This document shows, in pieces, positions 51,626 to 55,482 of a DNA stretch of 64,000 bases (positions are counted from its first letter, which is position 1; the number at the start of each line of letters is the position of its first letter). This DNA is from Bacteroidota bacterium. Its GTDB lineage: Bacteria > Bacteroidota > Bacteroidia > Bacteroidales > Dysgonomonadaceae. A program made the translations under genes and the position numbers. The stretch covers positions 1,647-65,646 of the forward strand of contig JAFADY010000037.1 of NCBI GenBank assembly GCA_023424395.1, written 5' to 3'. The notes below the pieces were generated by a model that did not search any database, was not told the origin of the DNA, and saw only the letters and a list, made by a program, of their open reading frames with translations.

Positions 51626-54421
51626 ATGAGTAATTCCAAAGAGATAGAAATTAAGGGAGCGCGCGTTAATAATCTGAAAAACATCGACGTACGAATCCCT
51701 CGAAATACATTTACGGTTATTACAGGCTTATCGGGTTCGGGAAAGTCATCGCTTGCTTTCGATACGCTGTACGCCGAAGGGCAACGGCGTTATGTGGAAA
51801 GCCTTTCGTCTTATGCGCGGCAATTTCTTGGGCGAATGAACAAGCCCGAATGCGATTACATTAAAGGCATTCCGCCTGCCATTGCCATCGAGCAGAAAGT
51901 TACCACGCGCAACCCACGCTCTACTGTTGGTACTTCCACCGAAATCTATGAATATCTGCGTCTGCTTTTCGCGCGCATTGGCAAAACCATTTCACCCGTT
52001 TCTGGCAATGAAGTGAAACGTCACTATGTGCACGATATCATCCACAAAATGCAGGAATACCGCGAAGGAACGCGATTGGCAGTATTATCATCCATTCAAC
52101 TTCGTAACAGACGCAGTCTTTCGGAACAACTCGAAATTTTGCTGAAAGAAGGTTTTACTCGTGTGGATGTGGGCGAGCAGTTTTATCGGATTGATAAGTT
52201 GTTGCAACAGAAAAAACTACCCGCGCACGAAGAGGTGTTGCTCGTTATCGACCGCCTTTCCTGCTCATCCGATAAAGCGAACATCAATCGCCTGTCCGAT
52301 TCGGTGGAAACGGCGTTTTTGGAAGGAAATGGCGAGTGTATCGTTCGTTTTTGGGGAGAAAAAGGAATGGAATCGTTCACTTTTTCTAATCGTTTTGAGG
52401 CTGACGGCATCGTGTTCGAAGAACCATCGGATATGATGTTCAACTTCAACAGTCCGGTTGGAGCTTGCCCTAAATGCGAAGGTTTCGGTAAAGTTATCGG
52501 GATTGACGAAAATTTGGTAATACCCGATAAGAGCCTTTCGGTTCAGGAAGAATGTGTACAATGTTGGAAAGGCGAAAAAATGAGCGAGTGGCGCAAAGAA
52601 TTCGTGTATAACGCCTACAAAGCTGATTTTCCGATCCACCGGGCTTATTACGATTTGAACGAACACGAAAAGGATATTTTGTGGAACGGGCGGCACAATT
52701 TGGGTATTTACGGCATTAACGATTTTTTTCAGATGCTCGAAAAAAATCTGTATAAAATACAATACCGGGTTATGTTGGCGCGCTATCGCGGCAAAACGGA
52801 TTGTCCTGCTTGCAAAGGCGCACGATTGAAGCCCGAAGCCGCTTACGTGAAAGTGGGCGAAAAATCCATCAGCGAATTGGTTTTACTTCCGATCACGGAA
52901 TTGAAAGTTTTTTTCGACAACCTGCAACTTGACGAAACCGATTCCGCCATCGCCTTGCGCTTACTCACTGAAGTCCATAACCGCCTGCAATTTATGATCA
53001 ATGTGGGATTGGGATATTTAACGCTCAACAGGTTATCGAACACGCTTTCGGGCGGTGAAAGTCAGCGCATTAATTTGGCGTCATCGCTCGGCAGCAGCTT
53101 GGTGGGCTCGTTGTACATTTTGGACGAACCGAGTATCGGACTGCACTCACGCGACACGTATCTTTTGATTCAGGTGTTGAACGATTTGCAGAAACTCGGC
53201 AACACGGTTATCGTGGTTGAACACGATGAAGAAATTATACGCGCTGCCCACCATATTATCGACATCGGCCCCAAAGCCGGACGATTGGGCGGCGAGGTGA
53301 TGTACCAAGGAAATGTTCAGGAATTGGAGAAAAATACCGACAGCTACACGGTGAAATACCTGACGGGAGAAGAACAGATCGAAGTACCGAAAACCCGCCG
53401 TAAATGGAACAACTACATTGAAGTGAAAGGCGCCCGGCAAAACAATTTGAAGAATATCGACGTGAAATTCCCGCTAAACGTAATGACGGTGGTTACAGGC
53501 GTGAGCGGATCGGGCAAATCGTCGCTCGTGAACGATGTGTTTTACAATGCTCTGCAACACCACTACAAAGGCGGAGCCTTGGAACAAAGCGAGTTTAACG
53601 GCATTTCGGGCGATTTAAAACTGATAAAATCGGTGGAATACGTAGATCAAAATCCTATTGGGAAATCGTCGCGTTCCAACGCTGTTACCTATTTGAAAGC
53701 CTACGACGAAATCCGAAAACTGTTTGCGGCGCAGCCGCTTGCGAAGCAAATGAATTACAGTCCGGCCTATTTTTCGTTCAACGTGGAAGGTGGGCGCTGT
53801 GAAGAATGCAAGGGTGATGGCACAATAACGGTTGAAATGCAGTTTATGGCCGATATTCAGTTGGAATGCGAATCGTGCCACGGCAAACGGTTTTCACCCG
53901 AAGTACTTGAAGTGGAATACAAAGGCAACACAATTTACGATATTTTGGAAATGACGGTTGACCAGGCCGTAGATTTTTTCGGCGCGCAAAAAGGCGCCAC
54001 CGAAAAGAAAATTACCAAAAAAATGCAGCCCCTCAAAGACGTTGGGTTAGGTTATATAAAACTCGGACAATCGTCGTCCACATTATCGGGTGGAGAAAAT
54101 CAACGCGTGAAATTAGCCTATTATTTGGGCGAAGAAAAGTCGCTCCCAACCATTTTTATTTTCGACGAACCCACCACCGGACTGCACTTTCACGATATAA
54201 AAACGCTTCTTAAAGCGTTTGACGCACTTATCGAACGCGGACACACGGTTATAATTATCGAACATAATATGGAAGTGATCAAATGTGCCGATCACATCAT
54301 CGATATCGGCCCCGAAGGCGGAAAAGCCGGTGGTTATATCGTGTGCGAAGGCACTCCGGAAACTGTGGTAAAGTGCAAGGAGTCGCACACGGGTCAGTTT
54401 TTGAAGGAAAAGCTTGACTGA
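51626..54421 (+). CDS. uvrA: excinuclease ABC subunit UvrA
   Basis: Two ABC modules ([23 protein letters not shown] and [10 protein letters not shown]), LSGGE signatures and zinc-finger cysteines ([20 protein letters not shown]...CESCHG). Confidence 0.95.
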
Positions 54422-54460
54422 TTGAGTAAAAAAACATACTTTTGAAAAAAAATAGACTCT

Positions 54461-55261
54461 ATGCACAAAAGACATACCGCCAGAGAAACGTATTTCAAAG
54501 AACTTGCCCAAACAAGTGAAAAATATTTCATTCCTTTCATTAAAAAACAGAAACCGATAACAGACAGACTTTCAATATTTGAAATTGGGTGCGGAGAAGG
54601 TGGCAACTTACTACCCTTCGCTAAACGCGGATGCAAGGTTACAGGAATTGATATATCCGAAACCCGAATAAAACAGGCTAACGATTTTTTTGCTTCCGAA
54701 AAAGCACAAGGTATTTTTCTTCTCAAAGATATTTTTTCGTATAACTCCCTAGCGGCAGAGAGAGAGAGAGAGAGAGAGAGAGAGAGATACGATATAATTA
54801 TCACTCACGATGTAATTGAGCATGTCCGCCAAAAAAAAGAATTGCTTGCCATAGCCGCTTCTTTATTGCATGCGCAAGGAAGCATTCACGTAGGATTTCC
54901 ACCGTGGCAGATGCCGTTTGGCGGACATCAGCAAATCGCAAAGGATAAATACGTTTCGCGCATTCCGTTCATTCATCTGCTTCCTACATTTTTGTACCAG
55001 AAAATACTAAAAAAAGTTGAAAATAAAGCTGTTATAGAAGAATTGTTAGATATAAAAAAGTGCGGGACAAGCATTGAATTGTTCAAAAAAACAGTAAGCG
55101 CGACTTGTTTAAACATATCCGATGAAGTGTTTTACTTTATTAATCCGCATTACGAAACAAAGTTCGGCTTAAAACCCCGAAAATTATGGACTGTAATTTC
55201 GCTCATTCCTTGGGTTCGGAATTTCTTTACAACTTCCTATTTCTGTATTTTGGCCAAATAA
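54461..55261 (+). CDS. class I SAM-dependent methyltransferase carried on an insertion in the uvrA 3' end
   Basis: SAM motif I is IFEIGCGEGGNL, with post-I GIDIS and YDIIITHDVIEHV. It contains an ERERERERER run encoded by (AG)15 and is visibly more AT-rich than uvrA. Confidence 0.8.
   Translation: MHKRHTARETYFKELAQTSEKYFIPFIKKQKPITDRLSIFEIGCGEGGNLLPFAKRGCKVTGIDISETRIKQANDFFASEKAQGIFLLKDIFSYNSLAAERERERERERYDIIITHDVIEHVRQKKELLAIAASLLHAQGSIHVGFPPWQMPFGGHQQIAKDKYVSRIPFIHLLPTFLYQKILKKVENKAVIEELLDIKKCGTSIELFKKTVSATCLNISDEVFYFINPHYETKFGLKPRKLWTVISLIPWVRNFFTTSYFCILAK
54757..54787 (+). repeat. (AG)15 dinucleotide microsatellite inside the methyltransferase CDS
   Basis: AGAG + 10xAG + AGAGAG + A, counted directly. 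It is read in frame as (Glu-Arg)x5. Confidence 0.95.
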
Positions 55262-55352
55262 TCCATCATGTTCTCATTATTAATAAACATCCAATTCACC
55301 CGTCTTCTTTTAAGCAAACTTGCCCTTGCCTGCTAAACATTGGTCTGTTAAG

Positions 55353-55454
55353 GGCAAAGCTGACGGTTATGTCGTGTGCGAAGGCACTCCGGAAACTGTG
55401 GTAAAGTGCAAAGAGTCGCACACGGGTAGGTTTTTGAAGGAGAAATTGAAATAA
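55353..55454 (+). pseudogene. orphan duplicate of the uvrA 3' end (displaced original C-terminal coding segment)
   Basis: Translates in frame as [33 protein letters not shown], against the uvrA end [34 protein letters not shown] 40-nt run is identical (54339-54378 = 55372-55411). Weaker similarity extends back to about 55339. Confidence 0.85.
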
Positions 55455-55482
55455 AAAAAGGCGCCGAAAGCGCCTTTTTTTA
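55453..55482. terminator. bidirectional intrinsic terminator
   Basis: AAAAAAAGGCGC-CGAAA-GCGCCTTTTTTT. It follows the orphan uvrA 3' copy and faces the convergent T9SS-cargo gene. Confidence 0.85.

Follow-up and report, generated by a model that had tools for sequence, protein, structure and literature searches.

A 64,000-nucleotide (nt) stretch of contig JAFADY010000037.1 (GenBank assembly GCA_023424395.1, positions 1,647 to 65,646 of the forward strand; hereinafter, the window, to which all coordinates refer unless another locus is named) from a Bacteroidota bacterium of the family Dysgonomonadaceae contains the 3' end of the uvrA gene in two copies: one is the functional end of an intact uvrA, and the other, an orphan tail, lies downstream of a gene for a class I S-adenosylmethionine (SAM)-dependent methyltransferase. 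A preliminary description of this DNA, made from the letters alone, took the arrangement for a small methyltransferase cassette integrated into the 3' end of uvrA. The analysis described here confirms that the duplication of the uvrA tail is real and far beyond chance expectation, and leads to a different interpretation of its origin, to which we give about an even chance: the structure would have arisen when recombination joined two alternative versions of the hypervariable locus that, in Proteiniphilum-like Bacteroidales, separates uvrA from a DUF2752 gene. The orphan tail is most likely a fairly ordinary recombination scar rather than a trace of a new mobile element.

The uvrA gene (51626-54421, + strand; open reading frame (ORF) list and Pfam matches to UvrA_inter, UvrA_DNA-bind and ABC_tran) encodes an intact protein of 931 amino acids (aa) that aligns over its full length with the UvrA proteins of the related loci L001, L002 and L172, at 83-86% identity. 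Its last 33 codons and the TGA stop (54320-54421, + strand) constitute the proximal copy of the repeat, and the distal copy (55353-55454, + strand) is in frame and ends with a TAA stop of its own, with no gene body upstream. A repeat finder delineates a direct repeat of 92 nt with 90% identity (54320-54411 and 55353-55444; start-to-start distance of 1033 nt), the sole long repeat in the region 54300-58500; codon-by-codon comparison extends the similarity to both stop codons (TGA at 54419-54421 and TAA at 55452-55454), that is, to 102 nt with 85% identity, 15 differences, no indels and a preserved reading frame. Within the repeat, an uninterrupted core of 40 nt is identical between the copies (54339-54378 and 55372-55411, + strand). 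The homology begins abruptly, at 54319|54320 and 55352|55353, and ends exactly at both stop codons; the flanking sequences beyond these points are unrelated. The E-value of the repeat is 5e-33; among 340 similar-sized control genes from related loci, four weak flanking repeats were detected, the best with an E-value of 2e-7 and none below 1e-7, so that the repeat is far beyond chance. The observations of the preliminary description are thus borne out throughout, among them the recurrence of the uvrA tail 1033 nt downstream, in the same orientation and in frame, with the 33-residue translations as given there; the 40-nt identical run, which is exact; the intactness of uvrA; and the duplication itself, which was to be verified by the alignment of the two copies reported above.

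The 931 nt between the copies consist of three parts. The first is a terminator-free spacer of 39 nt with a Bacteroidota-type -7 box (54422-54460, + strand; hairpin and motif scans), the second is the methyltransferase gene (54461-55261, + strand, 266 aa; Pfam and NCBIfam), and the third is a non-coding spacer of 91 nt that extends from the methyltransferase stop codon to the orphan copy (55262-55352, + strand; folding and similarity scans). The methyltransferase, as had been noticed at the outset, is the only protein of its kind between the copies; it is the only ORF of at least 50 aa with a family match there, and no tyrosine or serine recombinase was found in or beside the insert by inspection of the ORF list and the called neighbors, in agreement with the original observation that the insert carries none. 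The 91-nt spacer shows no significant secondary structure (z = -0.74 compared to shuffled sequences) and has no match in any fetched locus or elsewhere in the window; the possibilities that it is a remnant of the DUF2752 3' end or a structured site were ruled out on account of this lack of similarity and structure. The only novel junction that the structure requires is the one at the 3' end of this spacer, 55352|55353. Immediately downstream, a bidirectional intrinsic terminator, AAAAAAAGGCGCC GAAA GCGCCTTTTTTT (55452-55482; hairpin scan), overlaps the stop codon of the orphan copy.

The divergence between the two copies is biased towards synonymous sites. Over the 33 codons, the Nei-Gojobori method yields 7.5 synonymous and 6.5 non-synonymous differences (21.5 synonymous and 77.5 non-synonymous sites; pS 0.35, pN 0.08), which departs from neutrality (Fisher p = 0.002); from the expectation for a constrained functional copy and a freely decaying orphan, the departure is only marginal (p = 0.08). 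The synonymous bias of the differences, together with the preserved frame and stop codon and the absence of indels, argues for two uvrA alleles as opposed to a fresh target duplication; most likely, the copies go back to two closely related genomes that differed downstream of uvrA and each carried a functional allele of the gene. Furthermore, because the orphan stop codon overlaps a canonical terminator and the homology ends at the stops, the distal copy has the look of a native uvrA end from a methyltransferase-free version of the locus. In the orphan copy, aspartate has replaced a glycine that every relative retains.

The 15 differences cluster towards the two ends of the repeat. When they are placed at random, a 40-nt run free of differences is unexpected (p = 0.004 by nucleotide, p = 0.03 by codon), and this non-random core, along with the clustering, indicates that the copies have interacted by homology, be it through a crossover with heteroduplex repair when the structure arose or through gene conversion afterwards. 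The copies are 88% identical to each other, at most 80% identical to any relative, and 58-62% identical to the uvrA tail of L172; given that they are so much closer than the window and L172 tails, the duplication is much younger than the residence of the methyltransferase gene at this site and than the divergence of the lineages that have this gene in common. With respect to the tail of L084, the closest relative, used as the outgroup, nucleotide identity spans 77-80%, with the proximal copy at the top (80%) and the orphan at 77%; polarization of the 15 differences by this outgroup assigns the matching state to the proximal copy at 7 sites and to the distal copy at 4, the outgroups being at least 20% diverged. 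No mosaic break was detectable in the last 1.1 kb of uvrA.

The closest relatives of the window by uvrA are Proteiniphilum and other Dysgonomonadaceae-like metagenome-assembled genomes (MAGs), and only the nearest of these share the local synteny Na/H exchanger-uvrA-...-DUF2752-CD225. The interval between uvrA and the DUF2752 gene is a hotspot the contents of which differ in all five lineages compared: it is 238 nt long and non-coding in L002, 412 nt long and non-coding, with tandem repeats of its own, in L084, 882 nt long with a methyltransferase gene in L172, 1661 nt long with an EcoO109I-type restriction-modification (R-M) pair in L001, and 3636 nt long in the window, where it holds the methyltransferase gene, the orphan uvrA tail and a gene for a LamG domain protein. 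The tandem repeats of L084 (7230-7420 of that locus) comprise approximately four copies of a unit of approximately 60 nt (...cctccgcaacttgcgaca...ttgaaataaaaat...). In L001, a Proteiniphilum MAG, the N6_N4 DNA methylase and the EcoO109I-family endonuclease occupy positions 3860-5432 of the locus, starting 28 nt past the uvrA stop codon, and have no flanking repeat.

Orthologs of the methyltransferase are found immediately behind uvrA in at least two other lineages. In one, represented by the protein P0014 in four independent Logan assemblies (L172-L175), the synteny is that of the window: an Na/H exchanger gene and uvrA precede the methyltransferase gene, 22 nt separate the latter from uvrA, and the DUF2752 and CD225 genes come next, with neither a repeat nor a LamG gene. 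In another (P0004; L182 and L183), the distance to uvrA, itself 87% identical to that of the window, is 93 nt, again with no repeat. In a neighbor-joining tree, the window methyltransferase groups with P0014, P0004, P0002 and P0003. Its identities to the orthologs of these two lineages (62% and 58%) rank like those of uvrA (86% and 83%), and in the comparison of the window with L172, the methyltransferase (57%), DUF2752 (53%) and CD225 (59%) show similar identities. The existence of syntenic orthologs that lack the repeat and show divergence typical of the locus implies that the methyltransferase gene is not a cassette peculiar to the window genome; the simplest reading of these comparisons is that, in part of the clade, uvrA and the methyltransferase gene have long been neighbors, an arrangement that would have been lost or replaced in L084, L002 and L001. 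The UvrA protein of L172 (949 aa) has a C-terminal extension, PDGKSAYSLFQAKQ (3925-3979 of that locus), that ends 22 nt before the methyltransferase start and may be the footprint of an old rearrangement at the same junction.

Beyond these lineages, none of 78-80 species-level uvrA loci contains a methyltransferase gene within 4 kb downstream, and none of 78 contains a second uvrA tail, with terminator hairpins alone found at this position; the syntenic cases described above were retrieved only through methyltransferase homologs. No relative with a uvrA more than approximately 87-89% identical was found in the collections: the best match in a search with the C-terminal part of UvrA, which was not exhaustive in that the window uvrA itself went unlisted, was 87%, and a degenerate DNA pattern for a 12-residue peptide had no match in metagenome contigs. 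Among 15 billion proteins, the UvrA, methyltransferase and LamG proteins of the window each form a singleton cluster at 90%. The search for empty sites that had been proposed earlier thus yields a mixed outcome: L002 and L084 lack the methyltransferase gene and the 78 loci are single-tailed, but no empty site at the strain level emerged, and orthologs occupy the same site in other lineages.

The other component of the interval, the LamG gene (55500-57854, - strand), encodes a protein of 784 aa with Laminin_G_3, Por_Secre_tail and CBM_4_9 domains (Pfam) that is predicted to be sorted by the type IX secretion system (T9SS); upstream of it is a very AT-rich region (57855-58056; G+C content of 0.20 by composition), which is followed by the DUF2752 gene (58057-58440, - strand; Pfam), the conserved right border of the variable interval. 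The LamG gene is absent from the uvrA-DUF2752 locus in all relatives, and its nearest homolog (69% identity) belongs to a glycoside hydrolase cluster (GH20/GH172/GH88) elsewhere, the flanks of which contain no uvrA fragment and no shared terminator. The G+C content at third codon positions (GC3) of the LamG gene, 0.316, is 2.3 standard deviations below the window mean. The hotspot seems to have acquired this gene separately, in a second event. Given that it is foreign to the locus and low in GC3, a scenario in which the newcomer was a segment consisting of a uvrA tail, the terminator and the LamG gene, and the methyltransferase gene was the resident, is at least as plausible as the opposite direction assumed in the preliminary description. 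The genes called around the insert encode GHL10, the Na/H exchanger, UvrA, LamG, DUF2752, CD225, HD and PhoH proteins.

From the observed anatomy, synteny, hotspot and allele-like divergence, we infer the following course of events, including its route and direction. In one version of the locus, the methyltransferase gene would come directly after uvrA, an arrangement seen in L172 and L182, and the 91 nt would follow; in the other, uvrA would run straight into the intrinsic terminator, with the convergent LamG/T9SS gene and the DUF2752 gene beyond. DNA of one version would have entered a cell that carried the other. The usual outcome of such an encounter would be the swapping of versions by crossovers in the conserved flanks; here, one end would have been resolved non-homologously, at 55352|55353. 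This could have happened by either of two routes: through homology-facilitated illegitimate recombination, a linear fragment could have crossed over homologously at one end, in a conserved flank, and been joined illegitimately at the other, in either direction, or else a circularized fragment containing the uvrA tail and the methyltransferase gene could have been integrated by a single Campbell-type crossover within the tail. The 40-nt identical core is explained more naturally by the second route. With either route, both cargoes would be retained, and 102 nt of the second uvrA allele would be orphaned together with its native terminator. Thus, of the integration model originally put forward, the Campbell-type homologous component survives as one of two possible routes, compatible with the allele-like copies and the 40-nt core, and the site-specific component finds no support.

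Several observations weigh against this reconstruction. The uvrA-terminator-LamG version that it postulates was not found in any public sequence, and the nearest LamG homolog is located elsewhere in its genome. The collections contain no uvrA relative above the identity level given above and show no true empty or parental site. L084, the closest relative by uvrA, lacks the methyltransferase gene, so that vertical inheritance of this gene needs several losses, and its presence in separate lineages might instead reflect independent gains at the same site. The linear-fragment route on its own leaves the non-random 40-nt core to be accounted for and needs later gene conversion in addition. Finally, decay of the orphan after duplication in situ is not formally rejected at the p-value of 0.08 reported above, and the contig comes from a metagenome assembly.

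The cassette interpretation, under which a non-autonomous integrative unit of approximately 1033 bp, consisting of the methyltransferase gene and its own uvrA 3' end, entered the 3' end of uvrA either by site-specific recombination in trans or through a Campbell-type event involving a dedicated circle, seems unlikely to us. It does account for the allele-like direct repeats that bracket a single gene and for the non-random identity of the core. Moreover, the ancestral state appears to be kept by the proximal copy left of the core and by the distal copy at the far right (codons 30-33), as a crossover in the core predicts, and the replacement of the invariant glycine falls in the left part of the distal copy, as expected of a never-translated, element-borne segment; however, to the right of the core, codons 20 and 26 match L084 in the proximal copy and not in the distal one. 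The absence of the methyltransferase gene from L084 and L002 and the occurrence of its family in many different contexts also fit a mobile unit, but the orthologs at the same position in L172 and L182 are repeat-free and show locus-typical divergence. There are no terminal inverted repeats, no structured sites and no recombinase in or near the insert, and nothing outside the ORF is common to any other locus, so that the same cassette was not recovered elsewhere; searches with the methyltransferase returned no hits in the phage collection and, in the plasmid collection, only three Bacteroides records labeled as non-mobilizable plasmids, which at approximately 50% identity are uninformative. The claim of a mobile cassette mobilized in trans is therefore not supported, in view of the repeat-free orthologs at uvrA in L172-L175 and L182/L183 and the lack of inverted repeats and of an attC-like site.

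A partial parallel exists in L165, a 2.7-kb metagenome contig, in which a methyltransferase homolog with 48% identity (1401-2189) lies between 36-nt direct repeats (1277-1312 and 2202-2237) that are identical at 35 of the 36 positions. This repeat corresponds to the last 8 codons, the stop codon and 9 nt beyond of the upstream T9SS/DUF3244 gene, that is, the architecture is as in the window, with another target gene and a younger repeat. Such bracketing of a homolog by a repeat of the upstream gene 3' end speaks for a cassette; with the window left out, 1 of 81 family members and 0 of 340 controls have flanking repeats, a difference without statistical significance.

Insertion with long target duplication was reportedly described by Nobusato et al. 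in 2000. In R-M genes, this documented phenomenon involves repeats of 46-423 bp that often overlap gene 3' ends, with no mobility genes, and it has been delineated by the presence of R and M homologs, an insert of less than 20 kb, a flanking repeat longer than 30 bp, the absence of other mobility genes, and a comparison genome with a single copy and no insert (Furuta et al. 2010, PMC2853133). Applied to the window, such a process would have placed a methyltransferase unit beside the uvrA stop codon and duplicated approximately 102 bp of the target in situ, after which the orphan decayed and the functional copy drifted synonymously, a course of events that we consider rather improbable. Among the phenomena described so far, this one comes closest to the window: the unit is small (931 nt) and lacks mobility genes, the repeat (102 nt) exceeds 30 bp and overlaps the 3' end of a conserved gene, the relatives have a single copy of the target, an R-M system occupies the same site in L001, the L165 homolog is surrounded by a near-identical 36-nt duplication that extends 9 nt past the stop codon, and the asymmetric-decay model is not rejected. 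The cargo, however, is a single non-DNA class I methyltransferase instead of R and M homologs, and the repeats in the known cases are typically 93-100% identical, whereas those in the window are 85-90% identical with synonymous-biased differences. As to comparison genomes, the 78 single-tailed uvrA loci without the methyltransferase belong to different species (at most 87%), and other relatives carry the gene without the repeat; the synteny in L172 and L182 argues that the gene was already present. It also counts against duplication in situ that the right end of the repeat falls exactly at both stop codons with the orphan abutting a native-looking terminator, that the orphan is free of indels and has kept its stop despite 15% divergence, that it is about as distant from L084 as the functional copy is (77% versus 80% identity), and that the differences are clustered rather than spread. 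A more far-reaching variant, in which a minimal enzyme-less mobile methyltransferase unit is excised as a circle through long repeats and re-integrates by homology into the 3' ends of core genes (uvrA here and the T9SS gene in L165), with the dinucleotide tracts described below adding phase-variable expression, is quite improbable in our judgment, the L165 parallel being the one observation in its favor; if true, it would extend insertion with long target duplication beyond R-M systems and into Bacteroidota.

An assembly artefact, whereby a strain with uvrA-methyltransferase and a strain with uvrA-terminator-LamG were chimerically joined, appears highly improbable, even though the source is a contig of a MEGAHIT metagenome assembly (ENA ERZ27268956, k141_35041; final k = 141) and all records with these exact proteins appear to be derived from the same assembly. 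At 40 nt, the core is the longest stretch of identity between the copies and falls well short of k, so that no shared k-mer was available for a chimeric join; the junction 55352|55353 connects two unique sequences and, judging from the behavior of de Bruijn assemblers, must exist in reads; and a chimera of two strains ought to change over within the repeat instead of carrying both tails in tandem.

The proposed recombination joint also bears a likeness to other known processes. Homology-facilitated illegitimate recombination, reportedly demonstrated in experiments by de Vries and Wackernagel in 2002 in naturally transformable Acinetobacter and others, likewise anchors one end by homology and joins the other illegitimately, leaving added cargo, a partial duplicate and a single novel junction; it does not, however, predict the 40-nt identical core, and the organism of the window is not known to be competent. 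Variable hotspots flanked by core genes are similar in that five lineages have five different contents, including the R-M system of L001, but replacement at such hotspots normally leaves no duplicate of the flank, and the orphan tail marks an aberrant event. Tyrosine-recombinase elements that target tRNA genes or the 3' ends of other genes and carry a replacement 3' end, such as NBU1 and phages with their attP sites, share with the window the repeats of the target 3' end, an intact target and the displacement of the original end downstream, and target-derived direct repeats that resemble attL and attR do bound the insert (54320-54421 and 55353-55454); unlike the window, in which there is one housekeeping-like gene with neither a recombinase nor a defined core, these elements have an integrase, their own or a known one, and defined att cores.

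Three further classes of elements were considered and rejected. For a transposon or insertion sequence, there are no inverted repeats at the insert ends and no transposase, and the repeat is 102 nt long with 85-90% identity as opposed to short and identical (2-15 bp). For an integron cassette, the 91-nt spacer has no attC-like fold (z = -0.74), there is no integrase or array, and a promoter-like box precedes the ORF. For a diversity-generating retroelement, there is no reverse transcriptase, and the 15 mismatches involve all base types.

With regard to expression, all effects of the rearrangement considered here are predictions. The hairpin at 55452-55482 has 14 pairs, with runs of A and T on both sides, and is the only strong terminator-like hairpin in the area; Rfam reports no hit above threshold at this position, with terminator-like hits below threshold only. 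On these features, it is predicted to serve both the + strand unit and the convergent LamG gene. The hairpin scan detected no terminator-like hairpin between uvrA and the methyltransferase gene, as originally noted. Since no terminator precedes 55452-55482, uvrA transcripts can run through the methyltransferase gene, and read-through with a shared distal terminator is possible. A TAnnTTTG box, TACTTTTG (54437-54444), lies 16 nt upstream of the methyltransferase ATG, and another, TATCTTTG (51601-51608), 17 nt upstream of the uvrA ATG; both are no more than consensus matches to a motif without enrichment in the window (82 occurrences versus 68 expected). The first box suggests that the methyltransferase gene has a promoter of its own, and the like geometry of the boxes suggests very short leaders for both genes. 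Given this promoter-like box, the proposed co-transcription of the methyltransferase gene with uvrA is possible but not required. The uvrA gene itself would be unaffected by the rearrangement. Through RecA-dependent exchange between the two 40-nt identical stretches, the methyltransferase gene could be lost again on a 1033-bp circle, and the uvrA left beside the terminator would be a working hybrid.

The ORF at 54461-55261 matches five Pfam families above the cut-offs (Methyltransf_12, 23, 25, 31 and 11; E-values of 1e-10 to 3e-13) over residues 33-144, and the SAM-binding motif EIGCGEGGN is conserved in the alignment of its homologs, which identifies the protein, by sequence, as a class I SAM methyltransferase with a Rossmann SAM-binding domain and a GxGxG motif. 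Profile hits against PDB are limited to the Rossmann half, the same region as the Pfam matches; no DNA-methylase domain was found by Pfam or NCBIfam, and PADLOC returned only a partial match to mad2. There are 5983 homologs, the nearest with 63-65% identity, and the family is Bacteroidales-wide and occurs in many genomic contexts. Statistics on the orientation of neighboring genes were left out of consideration, since redundant contigs of gut Bacteroides dominate them. The G+C content of the insert and of the methyltransferase gene is 0.371-0.378, compared to 0.462 for uvrA, so that the insert is indeed AT-rich as described; as a sign of insertion, however, this does not hold, because the value is within the gene-to-gene spread of the window (mean of 0.430, standard deviation of 0.032), and the orthologs in relatives are also lower in G+C than the respective uvrA genes (0.456 versus 0.497 in L172; 0.411 versus 0.502 in L182). 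Low G+C content is a property of the methyltransferase gene in all lineages compared. In L159, L164 and L167 (270-5783 of L164), which belong to another Bacteroidales species, uvrA shows 69% identity along its entire length, and a methyltransferase gene with 47% identity is located 1.9 kb downstream of it; the 505-aa ORF between the two genes is a fusion of sigma-70 regions 2 and 4 with an outer-membrane beta-barrel domain.

The methyltransferase ORF contains a perfect (AG)15.5 tract (54757-54787, + strand; Tandem Repeats Finder, TRF), the only dinucleotide repeat in the 64 kb, which is translated in frame as ERERERERER. Relative to the homologs, the tract is an insertion in a variable loop that precedes the YDIIIxHDVIEH strand and is short in the homologs. 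One member of the family, P0003 (61% identity; L178, approximately 743-770, within the ORF 466-1254; also L179), has an uninterrupted 28-nt (AC)14 tract in the same loop, coding for THTHTHTHT, and the protein is identical in the two independent metagenome assemblies (L178 and L179). Thus, dinucleotide tracts recur at one position of the methyltransferase family. A slip by one unit in (AG)15.5 would shift the frame, which makes the tract a candidate phase-variation switch. To our knowledge, dinucleotide phase-variation switches are unusual in Bacteroidota. Elsewhere in the window, heptanucleotide tandem repeats are present at 26433-26478, 29200-29232, 29445-29473, 38794-38850, 40111-40175 and 47167-47214, with the units AAATCGT, TAAATCG, TTGGGAT, CCAACTC (7 copies), TATGAGT (9 copies) and ATTTTGG.

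The uvrA-DUF2752 locus of the window reveals no new kind of element or mechanism but is a further example of a long-repeat-flanked rearrangement at a variable hotspot. Its interest lies in that, under the reading favored here, it would be a clean, datable scar of the shuffling of accessory genes beside an essential repair gene in Bacteroidales of anaerobic digesters, in which two versions of a locus were fused rather than exchanged. It also adds an example from Bacteroidota that does not involve R-M genes to the poorly understood insertions flanked by long direct duplications. The dinucleotide tracts of the methyltransferase are perhaps of more practical interest, as candidate phase-variation switches.

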